IMG/VR virus record: IMGVR_UViG_3300010885_081999
Span: 39,726-103,725 of that record
DNA length: 64,000 nucleotides
Direction: 5' to 3' (one strand)
Source of the DNA: a virus
In this document: positions 436-42,700 of the stretch, in pieces
Numbering within the stretch: the stretch's first letter is position 1
Layout: the number at the start of each line of letters is the position of its first letter
Notes under the pieces: generated by a model
The model's database searches: none
Seen by the model: only the letters and a program-made list of their open reading frames with translations
What the model was told of the DNA's origin: nothing
Position numbers and translations under genes: made by a program

Positions 436-1428
436 TCAGGCCGGAAAGTGCTGCAGCAGGTCCACTTTCTTTGCGGCTGCCTCGTCGAGGTACTTCAGCG
501 GGTTGTAGTCCTCGGATCCCCTGATCCACTCCAGGGTCTCTCGAATACCCTGCGACAAATCAAGTTCTGGTTTCCACCCAAGCTTTTCCCTGATTTTCTG
601 AGAGGACAATCGGTGGTTACCGAGGTAGTCCGTCTTGGGATGCCACACCAGCCGTCCGCTCGTGCCAGGGAGGTGGGCATCGACTTCGGACACGACCTCG
701 GACGCGGGACGGGCAGTCTCCGCCGCAACGTTCCAGTCGGTTCCCCATCCCTGACCCATGGGATCTCGGCACACGACCTCGATCGCCTTGCAGAAGTCCG
801 ACACGTGGAGGTAGTCCTTCACCTTGGTGGGATCGAGGAACATGTCGATCGAAGGTCGACCTTTCAGGGAGGCATAGATCGACTTCGCGATGAGGGAGTT
901 CATGTCACCGAGACCTCCGAAGGCGAAGAGGGGACGCACGATCGTCCATCGATTCGCCATCGCGGTGACGATCTGCTCGGCCGCGAGCTTCTGGACGCCG
1001 TAATATGTCCGCGGGCACTTGTCAGAGGCTTCCGTGATCCACTCGTCCTGGTATTTCGGAGTATCGTAGATCACCGTCGTGCCGAGGTAGCAGACAGCCG
1101 CCTTGGCCCTGTTCGCAGCCCGGACGATGTTGTAGGTGCCTTGCACGTTGGAAAGCACAGCTTCCTGAGGATCGAGCGCGACGACGTCTGTACCTACGAC
1201 GGCCGCATTGTGCACGACGACGTCGATGTCGTTACCGTAGAGAACGTTGTACCATGCATCTTCTGAGTTCTGCCAGATGCATGCCTCCCCCGTCTTCGGA
1301 ACCTTCTTGGGTTCTGCTGCGTCGGAGAAGAGCTCACCGTCAGTGACGACCTCGTGCTTACGAGACTCGAGGACGACCTTGAGGTTGCGTGAGATCAGCC
1401 CGTTTTGGCCCGTGATGTAGAACTTCAT
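436..1428 (-). CDS. NAD-dependent epimerase/dehydratase (extended SDR, NDP-sugar)
   Basis: ITGQNGLIS Rossmann motif, HNAA, YGVQK (YxxxK); GGAGG RBS before ATG 1428. Confidence 0.85.
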   Translation of the reverse strand: MKFYITGQNGLISRNLKVVLESRKHEVVTDGELFSDAAEPKKVPKTGEACIWQNSEDAWYNVLYGNDIDVVVHNAAVVGTDVVALDPQEAVLSNVQGTYNIVRAANRAKAAVCYLGTTVIYDTPKYQDEWITEASDKCPRTYYGVQKLAAEQIVTAMANRWTIVRPLFAFGGLGDMNSLIAKSIYASLKGRPSIDMFLDPTKVKDYLHVSDFCKAIEVVCRDPMGQGWGTDWNVAAETARPASEVVSEVDAHLPGTSGRLVWHPKTDYLGNHRLSSQKIREKLGWKPELDLSQGIRETLEWIRGSEDYNPLKYLDEAAAKKVDLLQHFPA

Positions 1429-1489
1429 TGTACCTCCATCATAAACGGCTCGGGCGGCCATTTTCACAGCCGCCCGAGCCGAAGCTATC

Positions 1490-1945
1490 TCACTCAATTT
1501 CCTTGTCGTACGGTTCGTAGAGCATCTTTCCTGCGGCCTTGCTGCGATCGAGATAATCCTCGAGCTCTTCGAATGAAGTACACACGCGTGCACCTGATCT
1601 ACTCAACATGAGGTTGAATTTTGCTCCAGCTGGGAGTCCGGCGCAGAAGTAGATGATGTGCTTGTCGAAGGCTGTTGCATATCCGCACTCCATGATAGTG
1701 CCCAAGTCCTTATCGCGAGTGTTGACGACAAGGAAGTCAGATTCGCGGATGTGTTTCAAATTACCCTGATAAGTCGCATCCTGAACCTCACGGGAAGCAT
1801 TTGGTGGGCAAATGAAGATTCGTCGTGGAGACGCCATGTCAATCCAGTCCTTACGTGCCTCCATGATTTGTTCGAGTCTGGTGAGCTCGGCGTCTTGAAC
1901 GGGGTTGAACCAGCCTGCGGCGAGGTACATCTTTTTGCGATTCAT
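1490..1945 (-). CDS. Nucleoside 2-deoxyribosyltransferase / nucleotide N-glycosidase family
   Basis: YLAAGWF, D-x-GT-x-x-E-x-GYA and NLML motifs. Confidence 0.8.
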   Translation of the reverse strand: MNRKKMYLAAGWFNPVQDAELTRLEQIMEARKDWIDMASPRRIFICPPNASREVQDATYQGNLKHIRESDFLVVNTRDKDLGTIMECGYATAFDKHIIYFCAGLPAGAKFNLMLSRSGARVCTSFEELEDYLDRSKAAGKMLYEPYDKEIE

Positions 1946-2835
1946 CTTTGATTTGCCTTTCTAGTTGTGTATTCCAATAGTAGCATGTCTTTATCAATTG
2001 AACAACGTGACTGTTTACGCACGTTGTCAACTGCAGGAATGAATTCTAAGTTAGAAATGTCACCAATGACTTCTGGTGGCAGGCCTTGCCTAAAGCCTTC
2101 GGCAACAGAGAACTTGTGATCTAGGTGATACTCACCTCGCTTATCGTGGTTGTCGAGTTGATCTATCGGTTGCATACGAGTGAAATGATCAACTCTTCTT
2201 CTATAGTCCTGAAATTCAGGTAGATCATCGACGTACTGTTGCCAAGTTTTTCCATGCGTCTTGAGCAGCTTCTTGTCCATAGAAGAAGAGATAAACGCTG
2301 GCGATAAGACGATGTTGTGCACTCCAAACTTTTCGACACAAGTTTCTTCTGCTCGAGATCGTAGAATAGGAGATTCGAAAGTCGATGGGCCACCCCATCT
2401 ATCAGTCATCGTTTGGCGCCGCCGGGCAAGCACTTCGGGATTTTCAATCGGAGACTTATAGCCGTATCTCTTCAAATTTGTCTCTTCGATCTTGGCCCTA
2501 AACTCTTCCGTCTGAGAGTAAACATCGACTCCATAACGCTCGCGAGTAGTCTTCTTCGACTTCTCTTTGGTTGAGTCAAGCTCAAATGTGCTAGCAACAC
2601 CATACTTTCTAATGTTGTTATTTTTGCGTTTTTCTTTTATCTCATCGCAAGACATTGGAAAGTCTGTCCCGTGCTTCTCTAAACTCTTCTTTCGACGAAG
2701 CTCGTATGTGATACCGCCTTTCTTCTGGGCAAGGTAGATGCACTCTTTCGAGCAAAAGAAGAAGCCAGATTTGTTGCTAAGCGGATTCTTTGGCACGAAT
2801 ATCGTCTTGCACTGCGAGCAGATTTTCTCTTTCAT
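1942..2835 (-). CDS. Putative homing endonuclease: Zn finger, (K/R)YG repeats, C-terminal HNH-like domain
   Basis: CSQC...CSKEC, repeated KYGV/RYG units, HLDH...NL...DN..K; visibly AT-richer than neighbours. Confidence 0.65.
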   Translation of the reverse strand: MKEKICSQCKTIFVPKNPLSNKSGFFFCSKECIYLAQKKGGITYELRRKKSLEKHGTDFPMSCDEIKEKRKNNNIRKYGVASTFELDSTKEKSKKTTRERYGVDVYSQTEEFRAKIEETNLKRYGYKSPIENPEVLARRRQTMTDRWGGPSTFESPILRSRAEETCVEKFGVHNIVLSPAFISSSMDKKLLKTHGKTWQQYVDDLPEFQDYRRRVDHFTRMQPIDQLDNHDKRGEYHLDHKFSVAEGFRQGLPPEVIGDISNLEFIPAVDNVRKQSRCSIDKDMLLLEYTTRKANQR

Positions 2836-2956
2836 CGCCAATCCTCTCTCGAATGATCTCGGCGACGAATTGACTCATCAGTAATCCATGTTGAGCACAA
2901 TACACCTTCAGCGCTTTGTGAGTCTCTTCGTCCACCGAGATCTTCGATTGTTTCAT
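2777..2956 (-). CDS. Small ribbon-helix-helix-like DNA-binding protein (59 aa)
   Basis: Manual translation MKQSKISVDEETHKALKVYCAQHGLLMSQFVAEIIRERI..., a beta-alpha-alpha pattern; below the ORF-track cutoff. Confidence 0.6.
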   Translation of the reverse strand: MKQSKISVDEETHKALKVYCAQHGLLMSQFVAEIIRERIGDERENLLAVQDDIRAKESA

Positions 2957-2992: not shown

Positions 2993-3976
2993 TTACTTAC
3001 CTACCTTCCAATCGTTGTGCTGCCTCTTGATGGCATTCCAGTCTGTCATGTCTGCGTTCCACAGCTCGGTGAATCGCTTCTGTGGTCCGTTGCCGTGGGT
3101 GCCGTTGATGTCCTCGCGGGTCGACTGATAGATCGTGTCCTGTGGATGGAACTCGAACGTGTCGTTCTTCGGGATGGGCCAGTAGAGGTTCGTGCCTCGC
3201 GACACGAACTTGTCACCTTCCTTGACGCGGAAGGTCTTGATGTAGTGCATGTCGGGCTTGTTGAAGTCGATCACGGACGTGAACTCGGGGATCACCTTCG
3301 CCACCTCGACTGCCATGCGAGACGCGAGGAGGTTGTCGGCAGCCGGCTGGATCTGGGTGTCCATTCGCTGGTAGATGAAGCCGATGAGCTCCTTGAGTGG
3401 GAGGCGCATGTAGTAGAACGACGTCATGCACTTCGGGAGGATGAGTCGGGCATCCATCATCGACACGACCTTCGAATCCGTCATGTCGGCATAGAGCTGC
3501 TTCGAGTCCTCGACGAGCTTCTTCCATCGAGCGTGGAACTCAGGAGAGTTCTGGACGGGCTCGGGAATCACAGCGTCGTCGTCTCGGAGGTCACGGTCGC
3601 CCGTGCACTGGGCGGCGAAGGTGCCGGCACGATGGCGGATGATGTGTGTCACCTCCTGAAACGAGAGGCCGCTGAGACGGAAAGTGAAGCCGAGGCACTC
3701 CATGGGAGCGGGAAGCGTGCGGCCGCCGAACACGTCCTCGAGGTTCTTCGACAGCTCACGCTGGGTGACGCCGCTGGTGGGATCGATGTCCGGGCGGTCT
3801 GCCCACGTCGCCTTGACGTAGTGCCACGCGACGTTCCAGGCCTGCTGACGCGTGGGAGCGTCGACTAGCTCCACCTTGAGGGCATCGAGGTTGTTGTGGA
3901 ACTGGGTCTTCGGTTCTTGACCGAACTTGAGGACCATGGGAAGCTCAATGGGTTGAAGATCACGATTGATGGGCAT
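2993..3976 (-). CDS. Divergent ThyX-like flavin-dependent enzyme
   Basis: E..FTF, HIIRHR-x7-C, DARLILP; the canonical motif is RHR-x7/8-S. Confidence 0.75.
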   Translation of the reverse strand: MPINRDLQPIELPMVLKFGQEPKTQFHNNLDALKVELVDAPTRQQAWNVAWHYVKATWADRPDIDPTSGVTQRELSKNLEDVFGGRTLPAPMECLGFTFRLSGLSFQEVTHIIRHRAGTFAAQCTGDRDLRDDDAVIPEPVQNSPEFHARWKKLVEDSKQLYADMTDSKVVSMMDARLILPKCMTSFYYMRLPLKELIGFIYQRMDTQIQPAADNLLASRMAVEVAKVIPEFTSVIDFNKPDMHYIKTFRVKEGDKFVSRGTNLYWPIPKNDTFEFHPQDTIYQSTREDINGTHGNGPQKRFTELWNADMTDWNAIKRQHNDWKVGK

Positions 3977-4052: not shown

Positions 4053-4997
4053 TCAAATGACGTAATCGACGAAACTGATGGGGTCGCTGCCCTCTGGGAC
4101 ATACACGACGTTCTTCATTCCCTCGACCTCGGCGTTGTAAGTCTTTTCGGGAACGATCACAGGCACTCCGTGTTTCGCGTATTCCGCTGCGTGCTTCGCA
4201 GAATCATCGACGGCGAAATACTTGCCGGTGGAGTAGTAGGGTTGGTCGGTGAGCCACACGTATTTCTCAGGCGTGAATGTCACGCCGTCGGCCGCGATGT
4301 CGTGCCTCGAAAGCCAGGAGTACGTGTCGTAGAAGGCGGTGAGATTGGAGGCAGGACGTGCAGTGACGATCTGGATCCAGTATCCTCTGTCCTTGAGGTG
4401 CCTCAGGAGACCCGTGTACTTTTCGTTGCGTTCGAGCAGGAGAAATCCGTGTGTGTCGATGAAGGTCTTGAAGAGGACCTCGTTGTTGAGTCCGCTCTTC
4501 TTCAGTTCTTCTGTGGCATAATACTGTTTGCTCTTGGGATCGAGAAAGCAACCCGTCGTTTCGGTCACCCATCCACAGAATGAAGACCTGAACTCGGCGA
4601 GGACGTCGTCCATGTCGAACAGGGCGACAGGCTGTCCGGCCCACTTCTTTGTGGAAAGCTCGTGCCTGTAGTGGAGGAAGTCGTCCTTCTGCGACAAGGC
4701 GGCCTCGAAAGTGGAGGCGCCGATTCCCCAGAGGTTCAACATCGCGAGGATGTAACGGTATGCGTCGACGGACTTGTAGAGTATCTTCTGCACGTCGACG
4801 GGATGCTTGACACCTCGATGATCCTTGTAGTTGACGCCCTCAACGATTCCGCTTGCTTCGGCGTGAAGTGCAAGAACGAACGTCTTGAGAAGCTCTTGCT
4901 TCTGCCAGTCGTCCAGCTTCTCAGGATCGAAGAAGATGTCTGAGAAGGCCTTCTGACGCCCTAGGGCTTCGTGCAGCTTCGACCAGTCGTTCATCAA
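4053..4997 (-). CDS. Degenerate all-alpha NTP-pyrophosphatase domain fused to a HAD 5'-nucleotidase-like domain
   Basis: N-terminus resembles the upstream dUTPase-like gene; C-terminal HAD motifs FDMDDV, VTAR, K, VDDS. Confidence 0.7.
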   Translation of the reverse strand: MMNDWSKLHEALGRQKAFSDIFFDPEKLDDWQKQELLKTFVLALHAEASGIVEGVNYKDHRGVKHPVDVQKILYKSVDAYRYILAMLNLWGIGASTFEAALSQKDDFLHYRHELSTKKWAGQPVALFDMDDVLAEFRSSFCGWVTETTGCFLDPKSKQYYATEELKKSGLNNEVLFKTFIDTHGFLLLERNEKYTGLLRHLKDRGYWIQIVTARPASNLTAFYDTYSWLSRHDIAADGVTFTPEKYVWLTDQPYYSTGKYFAVDDSAKHAAEYAKHGVPVIVPEKTYNAEVEGMKNVVYVPEGSDPISFVDYVI

Positions 4998-5371
4998 TAG
5001 TCCTTCTTGATTCGATCGTTGATGATCTTGTCCTTCTTGAGATAGGCTTCGAACAGCTCATCCGCCGTGATTCCCAGCATGATGGGCACCGCGAGAAAGA
5101 AGTTGAACGCATCCACGTACTCCTCGAGGAATGCCTCCTGATCGAAGTCTTTCACCTCTGTCGCACGATGCGGCTTCCAGTTCTTCAGGTGCTGAAGCGC
5201 CTCGAACATCTCCTCGACGCCCTTCAGGACGTTGTCGCGCACTGCGATCTGACCCTCCTTCGAGGTGATGTCGACGGGCCACTTCTGCAACACGGCGGGC
5301 CTCGCAGCAGCGAGGTCTTTCATGAACTTCTCTCGAAGCTCCAGCATTTTCGATAGACGGTCTTCTTGCAT
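4994..5371 (-). CDS. All-alpha dimeric dUTPase/dCTPase (MazG-like superfamily)
   Basis: EEMFEAL...WKPH...EEYVDAFNF acidic metal-binding motifs. Confidence 0.75.
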   Translation of the reverse strand: MQEDRLSKMLELREKFMKDLAAARPAVLQKWPVDITSKEGQIAVRDNVLKGVEEMFEALQHLKNWKPHRATEVKDFDQEAFLEEYVDAFNFFLAVPIMLGITADELFEAYLKKDKIINDRIKKDY

Positions 5372-5427
5372 GACTAAGTTCATCATACACATGGGTCAAA
5401 CTGCAGTACAATCGATATTTACGGTAC

Positions 5428-5733
5428 ATGAGAAACGTCCGAAACATCGCGAAGATCCTTCAGGAGAGATTCGGTGACCCGATAGGAAGCTATGCAGGAG
5501 ACGCACCCGTCGGTGTGAGAGACGAAGTTTCCGTCTGTCCACACTGCGGAATGATGCCGGTCGGCGGTCGATGTGGATGTTCTGAGGACTGTGGATGCGG
5601 AGCACCTTCGGGCGAATGCAGCTGCGGCATGAAGACAGAGGGCGCCGACGTGACGGACGAGGGCCTCTCGACGTGCGACGAATGCGGAATGCTCGAGGTC
5701 GAAGGCGGGTGCGGATGCACCCACGAGATGTGA
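5428..5733 (+). CDS. Cysteine-rich small protein (12 Cys, metal-binding)
   Basis: CxxC and CxC clusters; ATATTTA motif 6 nt upstream of ATG. Confidence 0.65.
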   Translation: MRNVRNIAKILQERFGDPIGSYAGDAPVGVRDEVSVCPHCGMMPVGGRCGCSEDCGCGAPSGECSCGMKTEGADVTDEGLSTCDECGMLEVEGGCGCTHEM

Positions 5734-6376: not shown

Positions 6377-7039
6377 TCAGAGCATCGCGAGAGCAGACTG
6401 TAGAGTGGTTCTGTCCACCTTTCCAGCAAGCTGGTCGCCGACGTACTCCTTGAACACCGGATCGCTCACGTCATCGCATCCCAAATCGGGGCAATGTCCT
6501 TCGTAGTTGCGAATGATGTAGTCAACAAGCTTGACTGGGTCGGCAGGTATAACGTCCATCGACCGTCTACGAGGACCGCCGCCGTCGTGTTCGGCAACGA
6601 AGCCCCAATCGCCGCTCTTCCATGCCGCGAACTCCTCTTGGGTGATGCGAGCGTGGCCCTCTTTCAACGACTTCGCCTTGCGCTTGCGAGACTCGCCCAT
6701 TGGTGCAGCGGGCATCGAAACCGACGGCTTGTCGTAAGCACGAAGCTTCTCGTCACCCTCAAGGTAATCCTTGACGTGCTCCAGGTCGGTGTGAGCAGAG
6801 GCCACGAGGTCCTGCACCCAAGCAGGAAGCTGGTCTCCCATCTCGATGAGACCGCAGATGGTCTCGGCCATGTCCTTGACGTCTGACATGCGAGACTTCA
6901 CCATGTAACCCTCGTCGTCCATCGGGTGACCGGACTCAAAACCGTGGAGGAAGCGCTGGGGATCCTTGCCTCCGGCAGGCATCATGGACTCGACTTCTTC
7001 CTTGATGATCTTGCGTAGTTGTGTTGCTGTGAGCTTCAT
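6377..7039 (-). CDS. Hypothetical protein with MKLTATQLRKIIKEEV leader; putative virion internal protein
   Basis: Leader motif; DDEGYMVKS...LPAWVQ...DYL segment. Confidence 0.75.
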   Translation of the reverse strand: MKLTATQLRKIIKEEVESMMPAGGKDPQRFLHGFESGHPMDDEGYMVKSRMSDVKDMAETICGLIEMGDQLPAWVQDLVASAHTDLEHVKDYLEGDEKLRAYDKPSVSMPAAPMGESRKRKAKSLKEGHARITQEEFAAWKSGDWGFVAEHDGGGPRRRSMDVIPADPVKLVDYIIRNYEGHCPDLGCDDVSDPVFKEYVGDQLAGKVDRTTLQSALAML

Positions 7040-7051
7040 TGTAGTCGTCCT

Positions 7052-7510
7052 TTACTTCTTCCTTGTTGCCTTGAAATCCGCAGTCGCCTTGCCTGTGGGT
7101 TGGAATTTCTGACCGAAGCCGGCCTTCCACAGCATGCCTGTGGCCGTCTCGGCGTAGTAGAAGTCGCCGTCCCTGAAGAACTTCACGAGCTTGTTCTTCT
7201 TTGCCTCTGCAGGAGTCGTCCTCGTCGCACCGAATGCCTGCTCCGCGGGCACCGGTTGGAGCCTCTGACCCAGAGGAGTCGTCGCGACGTACTCATCGCG
7301 ACGATTCTTGCGTAGCGTCTCGGCAGCTCGGGCTGCGGCCACGACGAGGTCAAGTTGCTCGTCGTCGATATCATCGAGAGAAGATACACCAAAGAGGCTG
7401 AGAAGCGGCGTCTCGTCGACTCTCGCGCCGTATTTGTCCTTGATGACCTCAGTGATAGAAGTCATTTCTTCTTTGATGATCCTGCGAAGTTGTGTTGCTG
7501 TGAGTTTCAT
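7052..7510 (-). CDS. Hypothetical protein with MKLTATQLRRIIKEEM leader
   Basis: Leader motif; tightly packed with neighbours. Confidence 0.75.
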   Translation of the reverse strand: MKLTATQLRRIIKEEMTSITEVIKDKYGARVDETPLLSLFGVSSLDDIDDEQLDLVVAAARAAETLRKNRRDEYVATTPLGQRLQPVPAEQAFGATRTTPAEAKKNKLVKFFRDGDFYYAETATGMLWKAGFGQKFQPTGKATADFKATRKK

Positions 7511-7512
7511 CG

Positions 7513-7758
7513 TCACCACCGGCTCCCTCTACGGCCGTAACTTCCGCCTGAGCTTCCGCCCTCAAAGGGAGTCGCCTCCCCGTCCTCGAGCCACGAGTAT
7601 TCGGGGCTCTCAGCAGAGTCGAAGTACTCCTCATTGCCCTCGTCGTCCACGAGGTATAGCTCAGTGCCGCGGCGCACGATCGACTGTTCGTGCTCGAGCA
7701 GCACCTTCTGCAGTTCTTCTTTGATGATACGGCGGAGTTGTGTCGTTGTGATCTTCAT
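7513..7758 (-). CDS. Hypothetical protein with MKITTTQLRRIIKEEL leader
   Basis: Leader motif; ATGA overlap with the dps-like stop codon. Confidence 0.75.
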   Translation of the reverse strand: MKITTTQLRRIIKEELQKVLLEHEQSIVRRGTELYLVDDEGNEEYFDSAESPEYSWLEDGEATPFEGGSSGGSYGRRGSRW

Positions 7759-8309
7759 TGCGGTAGCACCCTTTGCTTCAGTAGATATACGTGTCCTTCG
7801 TGCTTGTCCTCGATGCCCTGTAGCATGTTGTCGAGGCCACGCGTCATCGTGCCGCACTCCTTAAGGAGCTCGGCGAGGTGGGACATCACCTTCAAGAAGT
7901 TCATCTCGGCGAGATACGACCGCTTCGCGAGCTCGGTGGGCTGCGGGATGGTCGACGTCATGCCGTATCCCTGGACGAGTTTCATGAGCTGTGAAGTGAC
8001 GAGGACGAGGTCCACACACGCGGTGGAGCCGAGACCGATCGACTTCTCGGCGACTGTGTCGACGTCCTCGACTGTCGCCTCGTGGATGCGCTGAAAGAGG
8101 AGGTGATCACCGTAGAAAGGATCACCCTTCGTGATCCAGTGGTGGTTCTGGTGCACCGCCGCGAGGAACTTGAGGTGGACGAGAGCCACCGAGAGCTGTG
8201 CATAGGGCGTGGATCCCCACTGTGCGACCATGTTGTCGGTCATGATGTCGAGGTTCGGCTCGACGACGATCGCCATCTCGAGAGTCTCTGAAAGCCTTCT
8301 CTTTGTCAT
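7755..8309 (-). CDS. dps: Dps/ferritin-like DNA protection protein
   Basis: HW-x3-G-x2-F-x3-H-x2-F and D-x-VAE ferroxidase signature. Confidence 0.75.
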   Translation of the reverse strand: MTKRRLSETLEMAIVVEPNLDIMTDNMVAQWGSTPYAQLSVALVHLKFLAAVHQNHHWITKGDPFYGDHLLFQRIHEATVEDVDTVAEKSIGLGSTACVDLVLVTSQLMKLVQGYGMTSTIPQPTELAKRSYLAEMNFLKVMSHLAELLKECGTMTRGLDNMLQGIEDKHEGHVYLLKQRVLPQ

Positions 8310-9457
8310 CACTTCAGCTCCAAGTTAAAGCCAACGAGGTCCACGCCAAGGGGATGAGGTCCCCACGTGATCCTGTACGGTTCGCCACGCAGCGACTGCT
8401 GGTTGTTCCAATGCGACACATAAGCGTCGAGAGCCTTCTCGGCTTTCGCATCGAAGCCACCCGGAACGGATGCCTTGACGGGCACGAGAGTCTCGGAGTT
8501 TCGGCCCTCGCCGATCCGATACTTCTTGATGCCTGCTGGAACCGTCGACTTGCGGACGGAGAATATCTTCTCCGCCTTCTCGATGTACTCTGAGGACGAG
8601 AGCGACGCCTCGAGGAGGTCTGCGACGGGATTCGCTGGTACTTCGATGACGGGCATCACGGCCTCGTCGAGGTGTGCCTCGGACCGAAGCCGGCGGACGA
8701 TCGACATCAGCGATCCTTCACCGAGGACCTCCTTGTCGCGGTCCTCGATGCACTTGTATATCGCCTTGAGAAGCTTCTCTCTGTCCACCTTCACGCCTGA
8801 AGTGGCGTAGTGCGAGGCGGAGACCCGAGTCGCGAGGATCTCTTCCCACTGTCCCTCCAGGTTGGTGCCGTATTCCTTGCACAGCTTGTGTGCGAGCCTC
8901 TCGTACCAAGTGTCGGGCAGGTCCTTCAGGGGATCGGGAGACTTGACTGCGTCGCCGAGCGGGCCGTCGCCGTACATGTCGAAGGGCTCGTCCTGGGTCT
9001 TCGGCGTCGGAAGTCCTCCTTCTGCGAGGCGCTTCTCACGGGCGATCGAACGAAGCTGATCGTCACCGGGATTCATCTTGACGGCCTCCTTCACGAGGGA
9101 GAGGGGGAGGCGGCGTGCAGCGGCACATCTCACGGAAGACGCTGCGTCTTCGAGGAGCCTGGCTGCGTGTCTCTCTGGAAGGAGACGGGCTGCGACCTTG
9201 CGGAGGACGACGGACTTGCTCGATGCCGCCTCGATGAGGACGGTGGTCTTTATCGCGGTGCGGTTGACTCCTCGTCCCGTGGACTCGAGGAGGTCGAGTT
9301 GTTCGATGGCGGCCTCTGCGACTTTCTCGCAGTTGCTTGAGACCATCACCGGAGGCCCAAATACTCTGAAAAGCTCGTCGCGAAGTGCGGTTCTGCTCTT
9401 CTCTTCTCTAATTGTGTTCTTCGCTACTCGCTGCAGCTCTTGAAGCTTCAGATGCAT
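8309..9457 (-). CDS. Hypothetical protein with short HEAT/LRV-like repeats
   Basis: LRKVAARLLP and VRCAAARRLP repeats; GGAG RBS; ATACTTA upstream. Confidence 0.65.
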   Translation of the reverse strand: MHLKLQELQRVAKNTIREEKSRTALRDELFRVFGPPVMVSSNCEKVAEAAIEQLDLLESTGRGVNRTAIKTTVLIEAASSKSVVLRKVAARLLPERHAARLLEDAASSVRCAAARRLPLSLVKEAVKMNPGDDQLRSIAREKRLAEGGLPTPKTQDEPFDMYGDGPLGDAVKSPDPLKDLPDTWYERLAHKLCKEYGTNLEGQWEEILATRVSASHYATSGVKVDREKLLKAIYKCIEDRDKEVLGEGSLMSIVRRLRSEAHLDEAVMPVIEVPANPVADLLEASLSSSEYIEKAEKIFSVRKSTVPAGIKKYRIGEGRNSETLVPVKASVPGGFDAKAEKALDAYVSHWNNQQSLRGEPYRITWGPHPLGVDLVGFNLELK

Positions 9458-16398: not shown

Positions 16399-16992
16399 TC
16401 AAGCTGGGATGCAACGGACAGTTGCGAGGATCGTCCTAATCTCCTGTGCGACTTTCTCCTTCGACTTCTCACAGTCTACGACGTGGACCTTCTCCTCTTG
16501 AGCGTCCACCCACTTCGCGTAGAGATCCCTCACTTTTTGCTGCAGGACGGTGTCTTTCTCGTAGGCGTCCTCGGCCTCGTGGGCATGTGCCTTGCCGAGA
16601 AGGACGAGCGTGAAATCGGGACAACGTAGAAGTCGATACATCTTGTCGATCGTGGCCTCATCGATCCCCTCGGCCATTCCGTACACAGAAGTCGAAGGAC
16701 TCCACCTGTCGAAGATGATGTAGTCGTACTCGTGCTCGAGTTTGACGAGCTGGAAGCTCTGAAAAATCCATCTATTCAAGACCTGTAACCACTGGAAAGT
16801 TTTTGGAAACTTTTTCGCAGACCCATTCCGCAACATCCAGTAGATCAATCGATAGGTGACGTTGTCGTGGATCGGCACCTCGACGACGCATGCCCTCTTC
16901 TTGAGGGCTCCCGTGATGTGATCGCAGAGCATTTGGCTCTGTGTCGCCTTTCCGACACGGTCCGGTCCCTCGATGACGATGATCCTGCTCAT
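16399..16992 (-). CDS. tmk: Thymidylate kinase
   Basis: IEGPDRVGKATQ P-loop, FDRW motif. Confidence 0.85.
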   Translation of the reverse strand: MSRIIVIEGPDRVGKATQSQMLCDHITGALKKRACVVEVPIHDNVTYRLIYWMLRNGSAKKFPKTFQWLQVLNRWIFQSFQLVKLEHEYDYIIFDRWSPSTSVYGMAEGIDEATIDKMYRLLRCPDFTLVLLGKAHAHEAEDAYEKDTVLQQKVRDLYAKWVDAQEEKVHVVDCEKSKEKVAQEIRTILATVRCIPA

Positions 16993-17675
16993 TCGAACGG
17001 CTCCCTGAGAGTGCTCACATACTGTCCGTGTGGAACCATTTCCTCGAAAGTCAACTTGAACGCCTCCAGCGTGGCATCGAACACGCCGAGGTCGGACACC
17101 TGTGCGAGCATCTCGTGTGCAAGCTCCCTGACTTCGAGTTGTGCGTGCTTAGAATAGCGCAGCTTGAGAAAGTGATAGAAGCTGCGGAAGTTGAACATGA
17201 CGTCTGCTGTGATCTGGTTTCCGTAGGGGAGGTAGAATCGGGCAGATTCCTTTGCCCTCTTGCGAGGCATTCCTTTCGAGACGAGTCGTTCTAGCGTCTC
17301 GTGATACTTGTGGAGAGAATACTCGAGGTGTGTGATGTACTTCTCTCGTTCCTCGGTGTCCCAATCGACAGGAACATAGTACTTGTCGTCTTTCAACTCC
17401 TTGTATCGGGCCGACTCCGCATTGACGGAGACGCCGATTCGATGCTTCAAGATGTGAATGTGTGTCGCTACGTCCGTGGTGACGAGGAAGTGCAACGCAC
17501 TCTTCTCGAAGGGCGTCTCGTGACTGTTCTCAGCCAGCATCTGCAAGAGAGAAGGAATTCGGGCTCTCTTCTCTTCTGTCAAGTCTCTCGACGTCGACGT
17601 CCAAGCAGAGAGCCCGTGTGTTTCGTCGGAACCATAATGTCCGACAAGCTCTACTTTGTTTTCTTGTGCAGGCAT
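16989..17675 (-). CDS. thyX: FAD-dependent thymidylate synthase ThyX
   Basis: HETPFE, KHR-x8-SARY, ESARFYLP, N.RS..HFL.LR...AQ.E.R. Confidence 0.9.
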   Translation of the reverse strand: MPAQENKVELVGHYGSDETHGLSAWTSTSRDLTEEKRARIPSLLQMLAENSHETPFEKSALHFLVTTDVATHIHILKHRIGVSVNAESARYKELKDDKYYVPVDWDTEEREKYITHLEYSLHKYHETLERLVSKGMPRKRAKESARFYLPYGNQITADVMFNFRSFYHFLKLRYSKHAQLEVRELAHEMLAQVSDLGVFDATLEAFKLTFEEMVPHGQYVSTLREPFE

Positions 17676-23903: not shown

Positions 23904-24908
23904 TCAAAGGATTTGCGATGCGATGAGACAGCCTCTTGCCACCGCGTGGAGAGGATCGGCGGCGTGGCGGACTTCCTTTACGGGAAGTGGGAATCCGTTT
24001 GCGATCAGCTTCTTCTCGAAGTGTGCCACGAATCCTTTCGCCTTCGACGTTCCTCCTGCCACGATCACGGGCAGGGGATCCTTGAAATTGGGGAGCGACT
24101 TGTGACCTTCCATCGAGGCAGCAAGCTGCTTCGTGGTGTAGTCGATGAGACGGTCGTAGTAGGACGACACGGCTGCGAGCACCTGGTTTTCGTTTGGTTC
24201 TGCGACAGTAAAGTCGCCCTGTTCTTTCTCGGCCTGAACGACGGAGTCAGACTCTCCCGTCGCGACGGCGGACATCCTGTCGATCCAGTCGCCACTCTTC
24301 GTGGTGGAGAACGTGACAGTGGGCTCGCCGTTCAGCATCACGCAGACGTTCACCATGCCTGCACCCCAAGAGAGAGCGACGCCCGTGTAGTCGTCGTCCG
24401 ACAACTCAGAATAGCAGAGAGCTTCTGCCTCGTTGATGGCACGAGAGTCGTAGCCGCACTCCTGAAGCACCTTCTTCACGACGTCCTCGTGGTAGCCTAC
24501 GTCGAAGTCGTCGTCCTCTTGGTCGACTGGCTGTGCAGGGATGCAGAAGACGAGCTTCTCTCCCTGCGTCGTCGCCTTGCCTGCGACTTCCTTGAGGATG
24601 TAGGAGAGGACACGGCGAGCATCCTTTTCCTTCGCAGAGACGACGCCTCTGTACATGGGACGCTTCGCAGAGTCATTTCTCTCAACTGCTTTCTCGATCG
24701 CGTCTTGCCCCAAGATGATGAAGGACCCGTCTGTGTCCTTGACGAAGACTTTGCCCGTGAGGCCCTTCTCGATCATCTTCGTCGCGATGGGTGTCGTCGG
24801 CTTGATGACGTAGAAAGCGTCACGAAAATCCTTGTACTCTACGGTTCCTTCGGTACCCTCCGAGGAGAGGACGATGAACGATGTGCCTACGTCTAGTCCC
24901 TTTGCCAT
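23904..24908 (-). CDS. Actin-like ATPase (MreB/ParM/FtsA fold)
   Basis: GLDVGT (phosphate 1), INEAEA (connect 1), WGAG (phosphate 2), AGGTS (adenosine), ARG (connect 2). Confidence 0.8.
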   Translation of the reverse strand: MAKGLDVGTSFIVLSSEGTEGTVEYKDFRDAFYVIKPTTPIATKMIEKGLTGKVFVKDTDGSFIILGQDAIEKAVERNDSAKRPMYRGVVSAKEKDARRVLSYILKEVAGKATTQGEKLVFCIPAQPVDQEDDDFDVGYHEDVVKKVLQECGYDSRAINEAEALCYSELSDDDYTGVALSWGAGMVNVCVMLNGEPTVTFSTTKSGDWIDRMSAVATGESDSVVQAEKEQGDFTVAEPNENQVLAAVSSYYDRLIDYTTKQLAASMEGHKSLPNFKDPLPVIVAGGTSKAKGFVAHFEKKLIANGFPLPVKEVRHAADPLHAVARGCLIASQIL

Positions 24909-39792: not shown

Positions 39793-42700
39793 TCATGTAA
39801 CACTGCGTGCGATGAGGCCGTGGCCGCCAGCAGACGAGAGAGATGCAGGGGTCGGCTTGTTTTCGCCATTGCCATTGCCGAGTGCAAAGTTGATTCTATC
39901 ACGTATGATGGAGTTGGAACGATATACGATTGCCCTTTCGACCTTGTCAGCGTCCATCGTCACAGTGAAGGAGACGTTGATGACGACTTCCTTGCTCTGC
40001 ACCGTGTAGACGCCGCTGCTTCCCAGACCCAGCTTGCCTGCGGCCTCACCCATCCTCGCTGAGAGGTTTATCTTGGGAAGCTTGGTGAGAGAATCGTCGA
40101 TCTTCTGGATGAGACTGACCATCGCCTCGAAGTCTTTGATCGACTTCTGCGCAGCTGCGATGGGGAGGTTCGAGAAATCCTTGCTCGTGATCGCTTCCAT
40201 GATGGGTCGAATGTGTTCGGGAAGGACCTTGATCTGATAGGCTATTCCTGCTGCCTCTTCGTTGAGAGCCCAGATCTTTCCCGTGAGTCCCTTCGATTTT
40301 TCTGCCTGCTCGCCCAGGGAGTTCATTGATGTGAGAAGAGAGGTGAGCCGCGTCGCGACGTCGAGGGTCTTCTTTCCCGTGTCTGCCGTGAGAGTCTTTC
40401 CGATCTCGTTCAGGTTGACGATTATCTCTTGGAGCGGGTTCTTGCCGTAGTCTGAGACGAGGCGCCCGAGGAACGTCTTGATGTTGCCCACTGAACCGAG
40501 GATCGCGTCGACCGGAGCAGGACCTCCTGACGTGGCCGCACCGGACAGCTTGCTGGAGAGTTCGGGAATCTTGCCGAGGAACTCGAATAGTTTCAGACCG
40601 ACGTCGAGCGTCTCCTTGAACTTCGCGTCGGTCGGTACTGACTTCACGACGTCGATCATCGCCTTCACGAGAGGCCCTGCCTCTTGCTTGATGCCGTTGA
40701 CGAGCTGCATGATCGAAGGAACGGCGGCAGTGATCGCGCTGACGGTCGCGGGATTGATGTCGCCTTCCGGCTTCTTACCGCCCACGGCGTGTGAGATCGC
40801 AGTCACGAGGTCGGTGATCATCTTGATGATCTTCGTGGCCATCTCGATGGAGGCAGGCGACGCTTCAGTCGCACCTCCAGAGGGAGGCGGCGTTGCAGCC
40901 TGCTGTGCGACGGCGTTCGGTGCAGCAGCTGACTGAGGAGCGAGAGAGTTCATCTGCTTGCTCATGTCCTTCGCCTCGACGACTGTCTTGTCGAACGCCT
41001 TGCCTGCGTTCTTCGGGATCTGAGACATCGACTTGTCCATACCCTCGGTGATGTTGTCTCCTATCTCCTCGAACACCTTGGAGGGCGAAGCAATCTTGAA
41101 GATCTTCTTGGCGACAGTGATGAGGTCCTTGAACGGGCCTACGTCTGCGAGCTTGCCGAGGGATTCTTTGATGGAGTCGATGAGATTGACGAAGACGCTC
41201 TTGACGTTTTCCCAATTGAAGATCTTCCTGATCTCGGCTATCACGTCAGTGAAGGGCTTCGTGAGCTTGCCCAAGACCTCGGCGCCCCAGGCGACGAACT
41301 TGCCGGGAAGCTCTGAGAACACGGTCCAGACGTATTCTCCTGCAGCCTTGAGTCGGTCCATCGCCGTGGTCCCTGGTGCTGTCAAGATCTTGACGAGGTC
41401 TTCACCGATCTTCTTTATGTTCTTGACGAGGCCGGTGATCGTGCTCCAGACCACATCGACCTGTGCTTCGATCATCCTGAAGGGCGTGAGAACGATGTTG
41501 GTGAGAGTGTCCCAATTAGACTTGATGAATTCGATGACTTTCGAAACGATGTCCTTGAGGAAATTGAAGGGGGCGACGATCAATGCGAGCACTGCACTGC
41601 CCCAATACTTGATGAAGTCCACGACAGGCGATATCACCTTGTTCATCAAGAAGTCGAACGCCACCTTCGCAGCCTTCCACATCATCCTGTAGGGGAACGT
41701 GAGGACGTCAAGGATCGTCGGGCCCCACTCCATCAGCTTGTTGACGACCGGGTTTATCACGCTGTCCATCAGGAAATCGAACGCTGCCTTTACAGCCTTC
41801 CACATCATCCTGTAAGGCCAGGTTAGGAAGTCGAGGACCTTAGGTCCCCATTCCACCACCTTGTCGAACAGAGGCTTGATGGCGACGTCCCACACGGCTT
41901 CGATCACAGTCTTCACGAAAGCATAAGCTAGTCTGTAGGGAAGCGTGAGCCACTCGAAGAGCTGCTTTCCCCACTCCATGATCTTCGTGCCGAGGGCCGA
42001 TATTGCGTCCCAGGCAGGCTTCACGAAATCGATGACTGCGTCGAACACCTTCTTGATCTTGTCGCCGAGGCCCTTGAAGGAATCGGCGAGCGGTGCTGTC
42101 GCCTCGTTCGCAGACTGCAGCCCGAAGAAGATCTTGATCTTCCTTATCGCACCCTCGAAAGGAGCGAGGATGGCTGGGAGAATCTTGCTGAAGACCTCCC
42201 CTGCGGAGTCGACGATGCTGTTGAACAGCGTCTTGAAACCCTCAGCACTGAAGTTCTTCTTGATCCAGGCCCATGCATTGCTGGGTCCTTCGATGAAGAC
42301 CTTCTCGACGAGCTTCACGATCTTGTCAGCACTCTCATTGAATGCCTTCTCCAGCTCGACGATCTTGTCCTTCATGTTCTCCATGAAGGATTTCTCGGAG
42401 TTCCACGAGAAGATGATGTTGAAGAACTTACGAAGCATCTTGTAAGGCTCCTCGATGATTGCGACGAGGTCCTTGAACCATCCGATGATGCTACTGAAGA
42501 ATCCTCCTCCCTCTTTCGATCCGGAGGTGAAGAAAGTCGTCATCGCGGTCCAGGCCTTCTTGAAGAACTCGGCGATGTCGATCTTCTTGAGGATGTCCTG
42601 AAGCCATCCAAACATGTCGGCGATCTTGTTCTGTATGTCACCAAGTTTGTGGAACAAATCTGCCATGAGACCAAACAGGGGTCCAATGATAGGAATATTC

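Follow-up and report, generated by a model that had tools for sequence, protein, structure and literature searches.

What does a phage do with a second ThyX homolog with a rebuilt catalytic loop? The window analyzed here, a 64,000-nt stretch of viral DNA, encodes a canonical ThyX and a ThyX-like protein, P0001 (Table 1). The original prediction singled out the latter for a cysteine in place of the motif serine, and proposed an altered substrate or chemistry: a thiol nucleophile, dCMP as substrate, or hydroxymethylation rather than methylation. To our knowledge, phages always reach hydroxymethyl- and hydroxy-pyrimidine nucleotides through enzymes of the ThyA fold; a route built on the ThyX fold, if true, would be a second, independent invention. 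Judging from sequence, we see about an even chance that P0001 is a C5 hydroxymethylase or hydroxylase of dUMP.

Table 1. Features of the window discussed in the text
Feature	Position	Strand	Remarks
NAD-dependent epimerase/dehydratase (SDR)	436..1428	(-)	kept beside the module by jumbo-clade relatives
Strong hairpin	1446..1481	(-)	16 pairs (12 G-C), then T-rich tail; directly after the NDT stop
Nucleoside 2-deoxyribosyltransferase-family protein (NDT)	1490..1945	(-)	151 aa; PF05014 E 6.9e-13; catalytic-Glu motif DLGTIMECGYA
DUF7487/HNH-type homing endonuclease	1942..2841	(-)	Pfam DUF7487; inserted between the ThyX-like and NDT genes
ThyX-like gene P0001	2993..3976	(-)	327 aa, open frame; Pfam Thy1 E 1.9e-16; AF2 pLDDT 95.5
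Family-specific C-terminal region of P0001	2996..3259	(-)	~residues 240-327; two short strands, long ordered coil, terminal helix
Rebuilt ThyX motif and active-site loop, RHRAGTFAAQCTGDR	3593..3637	(-)	residues 114-128; RHRAGTFAAQ-C124-TGDR
C124 codon	3605-3607	(-)	inside the rebuilt ThyX motif
L88 codon	3713..3715	(-)	at the position of folate-stacking His53 of T. maritima ThyX, by alignment
MazG-NT5C fusion: N-terminal all-alpha pyrophosphatase-like, C-terminal NT5C (HAD) 5'(3')-deoxyribonucleotidase	4053..4997	(-)	314 aa; NT5C E 1.1e-5
All-alpha NTP pyrophosphatase (MazG/dimeric-dUTPase type)	4994..5392	(-)	132 aa; dUTPase_2 E 7.6e-6; phrog_12184 E 1.3e-18
Thymidylate kinase-like ORF	16399..16992	(-)	197 aa; P-loop GPDRVGKAT (sequence reading); overlaps the end of canonical thyX
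Canonical ThyX	16989..17675	(-)	228 aa; keeps H53, Ser, R-Y; Thy1 117.5 bits
Canonical ThyX motif, KHRIGVSVNAESARY	17403-17447	(-)	residues 77-91

A phage family with the ThyX fold

An SD-like AGAGGT precedes the ATG of the P0001 gene by 7 nt, and the product matches Thy1 (PF02511) over residues 70-231 with 60.9 bits, the curated cut-off being 24.8. In a six-frame search of the genome it scores 62.5 bits and the canonical second copy 117.5. Identity to ThyX enzymes is 13-19%, and a phmmer search with P0001 matched no chain among the PDB sequences. The fold is nevertheless that of ThyX: the AF2 model (pLDDT 95.5) superposes on Mtb, Tm and Cg ThyX and on PolB with Z of 15-16.6 and rmsd of 2.3-3.2 Å over ~200 residues, and superposition on Thermotoga ThyX, which the original prediction had named as a check, gives a Z within this range. 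With Hp ThyX added, the Z range is 13.9-16.6 (Foldseek E 1e-8 to 3e-10).

Relatives of P0001 number 1003 in the 90% protein database, with 345 representatives in the 50% database. They form a separate clade, the branch splitting off canonical ThyX at 99% SH-aLRT, and appear to be confined to phages; we found no characterization of the family in the literature. In the 50-member alignment P0001 carries all parts of the family signature: RHRxxSFSAQ[C/S/T/G/A]TGD[R/K]DxR, Leu in the H53 column, the motifs DAR and QRxDxQxQP, and the conserved C-terminal region with P267. A pseudogene or relic is ruled out by a family dN/dS of 0.03-0.05, that is, strong purifying selection, and by fixation of the Cys in 121 of 121 close relatives. 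From sequence and model, we predict that P0001 works as an FAD-binding ThyX-fold enzyme in which the sites for nucleotide and flavin are retained.

The rebuilt active-site loop

Residues 114-128 read as had been described, RHR followed by seven residues and a Cys. The whole motif is identical in 115 of the 121 close relatives and is thus no chance feature. That this Cys sits on the ThyX Ser is borne out by hhalign: with the 50-member family alignment set against the canonical ThyX profile (probability 98.4%, E 8.5e-15), C124 pairs gap-free with the motif Ser (T. maritima S88), and the pairing is anchored just downstream by RDLRDDDAVIP / KELKDDKYYVP. The canonical copy, for its part, has the KHR-x8-SARY motif attributed to it.

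The larger change in P0001 is not the Cys but the loss of H53, R90 and Y91. The S-x-R-Y stretch (Tm S88, R90, Y91) is not kept, the aligned residues being C124-T-G126-D127; three canonical residues are thereby replaced (H53 by L88, R90 by G126, Y91 by D127). His, Arg and Tyr are found at these columns in 0 of 50 family representatives, and the H53 column, never His, holds 43 Leu, five Ile, one Val and one Phe. In ThyX, S88, R90 and Y91 have been reported to be strictly conserved; the dUMP-triggered step is slower in the S88A, R90A and Y91A variants, in the last of them more than 100-fold (PMC8316439), and flavin oxidation becomes 1000-fold slower when Y91 is mutated (PMC11940539). Above C5/N5 the Tyr forms a lid against solvent (PMC6514825), and H53 is stacked on the folate pterin (PMC11940539). 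The RHR that binds the FAD phosphate and dUMP is kept as R114-H115-R116, and the arginines corresponding to Tm R78, R80, R147 and R174 are conserved across the representatives: R114 in 50/50, R116 in 45/50, R177 in 49/50 and R204 in 49/50.

This combination of losses and retentions bears on the main rival reading, which we consider possible, if tentative: P0001 would be a true dTMP synthase despite its divergence, a ThyX of phage type whose loop is built differently but which still carries out methylene transfer and reduction. In its favor, the four nucleotide/FAD arginines are all retained, and thymidylate synthase function persists in highly diverged ThyX proteins, for example the H. pylori one with 11% identity to the P0001 model. 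The rival reading is hard to reconcile with the absence of H53, R90 and Y91 from 50 of 50 representatives, since mutating these residues cripples canonical ThyX (PMC8316439, PMC11940539). R128, D129, R131 or the C-terminal region might, as far as sequence can suggest, functionally stand in for R90/Y91. This region, the extension of about 90 aa noticed at the outset, has no counterpart in most solved ThyX chains, although the last helix (300-313) is placed on the ThyX C-terminus in some structural alignments. It is conserved within the family (P267 in 47/50, Y283 in 33/50).

Could C124 itself be a new, ThyA-like thiol nucleophile attacking pyrimidine C6, as had been proposed? The residue occupies the Ser88 position, near the substrate in ThyX structures, and is invariant among the 121 close relatives that make up the jumbo-phage clade. 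In the wider family, however, the column is variable (35 Cys, six Ser, four Thr, three Gly and two Ala among the 50 representatives), with at least eight replacements on the tree, so a thiol nucleophile is not supported. The mechanism is impossible for the Gly/Ala members (5/50), which keep all other family signatures; the Ser/Thr members account for a further 10/50. Nor does ThyX chemistry need an enzyme nucleophile: the canonical Ser is not a covalent one, activation proceeding by polarization with no ThyA-style Cys Michael addition (PMC11940539). We therefore regard the thiol nucleophile as very improbable, and C124 is a clade-level variant, not a catalytic novelty. T. maritima ThyX S88A and S88C have already been crystallized (3g4a, 3g4c).

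Gene neighborhood and other thymidylate synthases

The P0001-type gene belongs to a nucleotide-metabolism module in which an NDT, enzymes that clear dNTPs and dNMPs, and a kinase are found beside PolIII alpha. The following counts are for the jumbo clade. The MazG-type gene, whose stop overlaps the start of the next gene by 4 nt, lies upstream in 54 of 58 loci, and the MazG-NT5C fusion, a homolog of which has a weak dUTPase_2 match at its N-terminus, is conserved in 54/58. Across the family as a whole NDT is the most constant partner: in 75 of 80 related loci a tblastn match lies no farther than 10 kb away, and Geobacillus phage GR1 has the gene as well. Its closest solved relatives are true NDTs (6evs, 1f8x). 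The hairpin that follows it is likely the operon end, and the SDR gene beyond probably starts at the ATG at 1426-1428, giving 330 aa. PolIII alpha is encoded just upstream of the module on the contig, and a dCMP deaminase and TK are in the same gene block. We do not count the DUF7487 ORF as part of the pathway; it encodes an HNH homing endonuclease that occurs sporadically, among relatives in L008-L010 only.

The module has a different composition in small phages, with a YfbR-like HD 5'-deoxynucleotidase and a P-loop-kinase-NDT fusion as against MazG and MazG-NT5C in the jumbo clade. In jumbo and small phages alike PolIII alpha is near the module, usually a few genes off and in some small phages directly adjacent. 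The arrangement in the window, an NDT (PF05014) together with a dNTP/dNMP phosphohydrolase and PolIII alpha close by, recurs in the related loci. Matches of the ~45-kb carriers in genome collections are limited to contigs in Clostridia and Ruminococcus (fecal) MAGs.

All jumbo-clade contigs of sufficient size, the 284-kb G033 (100% complete) among them, carry both canonical ThyX and the P0001-type gene. Other carriers with a second thymidylate synthase are G039 (canonical ThyX) and G003 and G042 (ThyA), so that the P0001-type gene stands alongside a canonical enzyme in three lineages. The whole contig carrying P0001 has no match to PF00303 (Thymidylat_synt). In nine metagenomic phage genomes that are complete or almost so (G001, G002, G004, G040, G043-G047) the P0001-type gene is the only Thy1 homolog, and no convincing ThyA was found there, with one sub-threshold match of 16.8 bits in G002. 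The same holds for GR1, where it is the sole Thy1 homolog and no ThyA-family gene was found.

Being the sole thymidylate synthase homolog in these nine genomes and GR1 is the pattern expected of a normal phage thymidylate synthase, and it speaks for the dTMP synthase alternative. On that account the enzyme would be fed by salvage: the nucleotidase would convert dNMP to deoxynucleoside, NDT would exchange the base to give dU, and the kinase would make dUMP. The NDT partner is indeed closer to true nucleoside deoxyribosyltransferases (E 3.5e-4) than to dNMP hydrolases (E 0.055), which fits, and in the GR1 group a nitroreductase-type flavin reductase is encoded directly upstream. The jumbo phage would, on this view, just retain two thymidylate synthases, for example for different infection stages or reductants. 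Against it stand the stable retention of both copies across the jumbo clade and the fact that two more lineages have independently combined the gene with ThyX or ThyA.

The GR1 group offers a further counterargument. Between its HD gene and ThyX-like gene, within the nucleotide module, lies a gene for a 464-aa protein that matches phrog_2888 'alpha-glucosyltransferase' (E 6.8e-51) and ~420 T4-type a-gt genes (E ~1e-4); nothing else in the phage is a candidate for supplying this a-gt-like glucosyltransferase with a base that bears a hydroxyl. In P0148, also of the P0001 family, a viral GT2-like domain is fused on, possibly through gene calling. The jumbo clade yielded no a-gt-like glucosyltransferase, and the GT2 genes of the jumbo-clade relatives are far from the module. 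A Tet/JBP search gave no match anywhere, controls included.

The nearest characterized relatives of the a-gt-like protein act on 5-hmC DNA, which raises the alternative that the substrate is dCMP. The product would be 5-methyl-, 5-hydroxymethyl- or 5-hydroxy-dCMP, in a T4-like pathway with the MazG-type enzyme as dCTPase. In its favor are the all-alpha NTP-PPase directly upstream, like gp56 in T4, the patchy distribution independent of canonical thymidylate synthase genes that a cytosine pathway predicts, and the family-specific acidic residues D127 and D175. Against it, R174, which deprotonates and activates uracil N3 (PMC8316439), has its counterpart R204 kept in 49 of 50 representatives, and a dCMP deaminase in the same gene block, seen in the jumbo clade and several small-phage loci, would drain dCMP to dUMP. 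This part of the original prediction is thus disfavored, and we consider dCMP an unlikely substrate.

Candidate reaction and known relatives

Of what had been proposed, altered chemistry stands as plausible and as our preferred reading, on the strength of the H53/R90/Y91 loss, the co-occurrence with canonical thymidylate synthases and the linkage to nucleotide-clearing and glycosyltransferase genes; the Cys lends it no support. Hydroxymethylation is a live candidate. We put at about evens the proposal that here, for the first time, a class of ThyX-fold enzymes makes something other than a methyl group: the P0001 family would consist of flavin-dependent dUMP C5-hydroxymethylases or C5-hydroxylases that start a DNA base modification new to the literature, with glycosylation following in some lineages.

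The fold, the residue correspondences, the conservation, the gene linkage and the co-occurrence are findings of the analysis; the substrate, the product and the roles of the partner genes we infer as follows. The substrate would be dUMP, supplied by the adjacent NTP pyrophosphatase and the same-block dCMP deaminase. With catalytic loop and folate-stacking His replaced, P0001 would install a C5 group other than a reduced methyl. One possible product is 5-hydroxymethyl-dUMP, formed by flavin-mediated methylene transfer and then hydration in place of the hydride step, since Asp stands where the Tyr lid would keep solvent away from C5/N5. The other, about equally likely, is 5-hydroxy-dUMP, made with flavin and O2 and without folate; within the thymidylate synthase superfamily, 5hodCMP synthase provides a precedent for a switch to flavin/O2 hydroxylation (PMC13326640). 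A dedicated Tmk-like kinase would phosphorylate the product for use by the phage's own PolIII alpha; for ordinary dTTP the phage would rely on its canonical ThyX-Tmk pair, encoded elsewhere in the genome. It counts against the modification reading that nucleotidase, NDT, kinase, dCMP deaminase and flavin reductase suit a salvage-fed dTMP pathway equally well.

If the modification reading is true, a flavin methylene-transfer enzyme has been diverted from reduction to hydration or oxygenation, and hundreds of metagenomic phages (the 1003 / 345 relatives) are flagged as likely carriers of modified DNA, which bears on enzyme discovery, on bias in sequencing and on the evasion of restriction and CRISPR. 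The carriers would be a widespread aquatic jumbo-phage clade and ~45-kb phages, with GR1 culturable. If P0001 is instead an ordinary thymidylate synthase, then H53, R90 and Y91, held to be strictly essential, are dispensable, with consequences for ThyX mechanism and inhibitor design.

GR1 is the only cultured carrier that we found. Its protein UDY80709, annotated 'FAD-dependent thymidylate synthase' (OK896991.1), is 47% identical to P0001 over 93% of the length and belongs to the same family, in the same NDT/HD/PolIII neighborhood; GR1 differs from the phage studied here in having a sole thymidylate synthase homolog and, within the module, the a-gt-like glucosyltransferase and the nitroreductase. 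With characterized ThyX/FDTS (EC 2.1.1.148; T. maritima TM0449, M. tuberculosis Rv2754c, PBCV-1 A674R) P0001 has in common the fold, Thy1, RHR and the R147 and R174 equivalents. It departs from them in H53 to Leu, S88 to Cys (variable in the family), R90 to Gly and Y91 to Asp, and in the extra conserved C-terminal region of ~90 residues.

PolB, the UMP/dUMP C5-methylase of polyoxin biosynthesis (4p5a, 4p5b), superposes on P0001 with Z 16.0 and rmsd 2.3 Å and is a neofunctionalized ThyX paralog found beside a housekeeping ThyX (PMC5954106). Unlike the role proposed for P0001, it still methylates; it comes from Streptomyces secondary metabolism and not from a phage, and lacks the NDT, nucleotidase or polymerase context.

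Close pathway parallels are the hmU/hmC routes of SPO1/SP8 and T4, built from a dUMP or dCMP hydroxymethylase, a dNTPase, a dNMP kinase and a DNA glucosyltransferase. The logic is shared: an NTP pyrophosphatase, a nucleotidase, a thymidylate synthase-like enzyme, a dedicated kinase and a phage polymerase (PMC8989533), with an a-gt-like glucosyltransferase as a further likeness in the GR1 group. Their C5-modifying enzyme has the ThyA fold, whereas P0001 has the ThyX fold; neither the P0001 contig nor GR1 has a ThyA homolog, and NDT is an added constant partner. P0001 is set apart from ThyA-fold hydroxymethylases and 5hodCMP synthases by failing to show the PF00303 fold with its catalytic Cys. 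In its proposed role it resembles, all the same, the 5-hydroxy-dCMP synthase of RB69, DLP3 and RL38J1, a flavin/O2 enzyme of the ThyA fold in which a thymidylate synthase relative has been repurposed to provide a C5 oxygen as glycosylation handle (PMC13326640). Both have phage NDP-sugar enzymes nearby; they differ in fold, ThyA as opposed to ThyX, and in that the known synthase acts on dCMP, the chemistry of P0001 being putative.

The two Thy1 genes and their source contig

The window covers bases 39726-103725 of an IMG/VR viral contig. At 103.7 kb this contig reaches a CheckV completeness of only 32%, and the source is therefore a jumbo phage. Its replication genes are both T4-like and bacterial-type (gp32, RecA/UvsX, DnaB, PolA and class II RNR), with a split PolIII alpha immediately upstream of the window. 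P0001, the 327-aa ThyX-like protein, is encoded by an open ORF with an SD-like AGAGGT 5' of the ATG; residues 70-231 match Pfam Thy1 (E 1.9e-16), and the motif RHRAGTFAAQCTGDR occupies residues 114-128, the cysteine being residue 124. The second copy is a canonical ThyX (Thy1, 117.5 bits) with the motif KHRIGVSVNAESARY at residues 77-91.

Features of the window
Feature	Position	Strand	Remark
ORFs with shared N-terminal motif	3-392, 6377-7039, 7052-7519, 7513-7857, 8309-9457	-	
SDR epimerase/dehydratase			last of gene run, after hairpin
Strong hairpin terminator	1446-1481		between NDT and SDR
Nucleoside 2-deoxyribosyltransferase-family gene (NDT)	1490-1945		3' of homing endonuclease
DUF7487/HNH-type homing endonuclease	1942-2841	-	inserted between ThyX-like and NDT genes
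ThyX-like gene (P0001)	2993-3976	-	
Pyrophosphatase-like/NT5C deoxynucleotidase fusion	4053-4997		second in run
All-alpha NTP pyrophosphatase	4994-5392		first in run
Cys/Gly-rich 101-aa ORF	5428-5733	+	opposite nucleotide operon
Thymidylate-kinase-like ORF	16399-16992	-	overlaps end of canonical ThyX gene
Canonical ThyX, 228 aa	16989-17675	-	
Actin-fold protein, Volactin (Pfam, E 8.8e-64)	23904-24908	-	within phage replication region

The split PolIII alpha lies in two ORFs (G000:C1:34425-39405 of the source contig, equivalent to L005:14425-19405) of 588 aa (PHP and the beginning of the NTPase domain) and 775 aa (the remaining NTPase domain, fingers and HhH). The halves are ~0.9 kb apart with a small opposite-strand ORF in the gap, as if an intron or some other mobile element had inserted into the replicase gene. 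An actin-like protein is also encoded by Geobacillus phage GR1 (OK896991.1), a cultured carrier of the ThyX-like family. Five paralogous, otherwise unlike ORFs share the N-terminal motif M-K-[IL]-T-x-[ST]-Q-L-R-[RK]-I-I-K-E-E, which may be a common targeting or packaging tag; the one ORF of the set that was scanned, 8309-9457, has no Pfam match. The Cys/Gly-rich ORF, with its repeated CGC/CxxC patterns, could encode a metal-binding protein or be an artefact of ORF calling.

Fold and active site of the ThyX-like family

The AF2 model of P0001, made from a 50-sequence family alignment (pLDDT 95.5, pTM 0.92), matches solved ThyX structures with Foldseek E-values of 3e-10 to 1e-8. VIA-align pairs ~200 residues (Z 15-16.6, rmsd 2.3-3.2 Å) with the M. 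tuberculosis, T. maritima and C. glutamicum ThyX and with the UMP/dUMP methylase PolB. Profile comparison by hhalign, also run in a single-sequence version, gives 98.4% probability (E 8.5e-15) against canonical ThyX. The family forms a separate clade (99% SH-aLRT) and is abundant: the 90% database contains 1003 relatives, and the 50% database 345 representatives. It is under strong purifying selection (dN/dS 0.03-0.05). Searching 185,579 genomes of prokaryotic species returned just two matches. The contigs that carry them, 22-44 kb long and assigned to Clostridia and Ruminococcus MAGs, resemble the ~45-kb phage genomes in size and identity.

We transferred T. maritima numbering through a phmmer alignment of the canonical window copy with TM0449. 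R114/H115/R116 of P0001 correspond to R78/H79/R80, Q123 to E86, C124 to S88, G126 to R90, D127 to Y91, L88 to H53, R177 to R147 and R204 to R174. The cysteine thus pairs with the ThyX serine, as originally predicted, and the C-terminal extension of ~90 residues is real and conserved across the family. A thiol nucleophile, which the original prediction had offered as one route to altered chemistry, is not supported. C124 is invariant in 121 close relatives (≥79% identity; the 15-mer is identical in 115), and 50 wider-family representatives, aligned at 23-44% identity, have C35 S6 T4 G3 A2 at this position. A tree with canonical ThyX as the root shows at least eight changes of state, and the Gly and Ala members retain all other family signatures. 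The canonical serine is itself not a covalent nucleophile, dUMP being activated by polarisation rather than Michael addition (PMC11940539); crystallised S88A and S88C variants (3g4a, 3g4c) are among the structure matches.

Judged from the alignments, the main departure from ThyX is the loss of H53, R90 and Y91 and not the cysteine, and this makes altered chemistry as such plausible. In the 50 representatives the H53 column is never His (L43 I5 V1 F1), and the R90 and Y91 columns contain neither Arg nor Tyr (G35 A9 D5, and D39 plus others). ThyX strictly conserves S88, R90 and Y91, and in the S88A, R90A and Y91A variants the flavin carbinolamine is consumed more slowly once dUMP triggers the step, by more than 100-fold for Y91A (PMC8316439). 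Mutation of Y91 lowers the flavin oxidation rate 1000-fold, and H53 provides the stacking contact to the folate pterin (PMC11940539); the tyrosine is a lid that keeps solvent from dUMP C5 and flavin N5 (PMC6514825). The arginines responsible for holding FAD and dUMP, and for activating uracil N3/O4, remain in place: R114 in 50/50, R177 in 49/50 and R204 in 49/50.

Genomic context and ordinary thymidylate synthases

The ThyX-like gene sits in a co-oriented run from the pyrophosphatase to the SDR. The homing endonuclease within it occurs in only 3 of 80 related viral loci (L008-L010) and is therefore a recent mobile insertion. In 75 of the 80, including loci just 40-46% identical to P0001, the ThyX-like gene has an NDT homologue no more than 10 kb away. 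In the close jumbo-phage relatives the conserved order is Fpg/Nei, MazG, MazG-NT5C, ThyX-like, NDT, SDR, PolIII alpha, Tmk-like kinase, SDR and TK, with a dCMP deaminase adjoining TK. The Fpg/Nei-family DNA glycosylase is found just 5' of MazG at L044:5952-6767 and in 32 other jumbo-clade loci, and is missing at the corresponding place in the window. Small phages have, in this order, a P-loop kinase (either fused to NDT or next to it), a YfbR-like HD 5'-deoxynucleotidase, the ThyX-like gene and PolIII alpha (directly after it or one short ORF later), some with an added dCMP deaminase. Some also carry a ~200-aa ORF directly 3' of the ThyX-like gene (L082:11002-11598, L071:3539-4192, L064:11067-11669), weakly like the ThyA C-terminal half (PF00303 E 5.7e-5; phrog_160 E 2e-6) and perhaps encoding a truncated partner of ThyA fold. 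In the GR1-related group a nitroreductase gene immediately precedes the ThyX-like gene, with NDT and HD located upstream at a distance of a few kb.

Every large-enough jumbo-clade contig carries canonical ThyX together with the ThyX-like gene, among them the 284-kb, 100% complete G033; ThyA was not found in eight large records of this clade (G033, G022, G011, G005, G028, G031, G036, G015) or in the source contig. Elsewhere, the ThyX-like gene stands beside canonical ThyX in G039 and beside ThyA in G003 and G042. It is the sole Thy1 homologue in GR1 and in nine complete or near-complete 45-85-kb genomes (G001, G002, G004, G040, G043-G047), where a convincing ThyA is absent, G002 alone giving a sub-threshold 16.8-bit match. 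These genomes weaken the argument that the ThyX-like gene would be redundant as a thymidylate synthase. They cut both ways, fitting an ordinary phage synthase, full replacement of T, or modification of another base with dTMP from the host. They do favour the main rival explanation, a divergent true dTMP synthase fed by a nucleotidase-NDT-kinase salvage route, as does the NDT itself, which is nearer true nucleoside deoxyribosyltransferases (6evs, 1f8x; E 3.5e-4) than DNPH1-type dNMP hydrolases (E 0.055); given the lost residues, we regard this explanation as possible, though doubtful.

A candidate base-modifying flavoenzyme

The best-supported reading, to which we give about an even chance, is that P0001 is a ThyX-fold flavoenzyme that binds FAD and dUMP and would no longer make a reduced methyl group. 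The residue losses are compatible with two chemistries. In hydroxymethylation, the flavin would carry the methylene to the substrate as usual and, with Asp in place of the Tyr lid, water could add to the exocyclic methylene before flavin reduction. In hydroxylation, flavin and O2 would act with no need of folate, in keeping with the missing pterin-stacking His.

Candidate genes for glycosylation lie close by in some carriers. Between the HD and ThyX-like genes, inside the nucleotide module, the GR1 group encodes a 464-aa protein matching phrog_2888 'alpha-glucosyltransferase' (E 6.8e-51). In tblastn comparisons it shares 92% identity with the GR1 glycosyltransferase and 34% with Bacillus phage G gp313; it shows ~22% identity over 64% of its length to ~420 T4-type a-gt DNA alpha-glucosyltransferases (E ~1e-4). 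The GR1 genome has no ThyA-family enzyme able to make a hydroxymethyl base. GR1 further encodes two NDTs, TK, an amidoligase and a gamma-glutamylcyclotransferase, the last two adjoining each other near TK (40057-41289, locus L086); amidoligase domains are known from contigs of thymidine-hypermodification pathways (PMC8989533). Family member P0148 has an N-terminal viral GT2-like domain (Pfam E 1.6e-4; Atlas score 0.97). An a-gt-like gene was not found in the jumbo clade, whose block retains two to three SDR sugar-nucleotide-type enzymes. Modified DNA is a prediction for these phages, and with GR1 in culture the chemistry of the family is readily testable.

A precedent for hydroxylation, from 2026, is provided by ThyA-fold enzymes that are flavin-dependent 5-hydroxy-dCMP synthases feeding glycosylation (PMC13326640). 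Those enzymes act on dCMP, whereas P0001 has the ThyX fold and its substrate is more probably dUMP, since R204 is kept and a dCMP deaminase is encoded in the same block.
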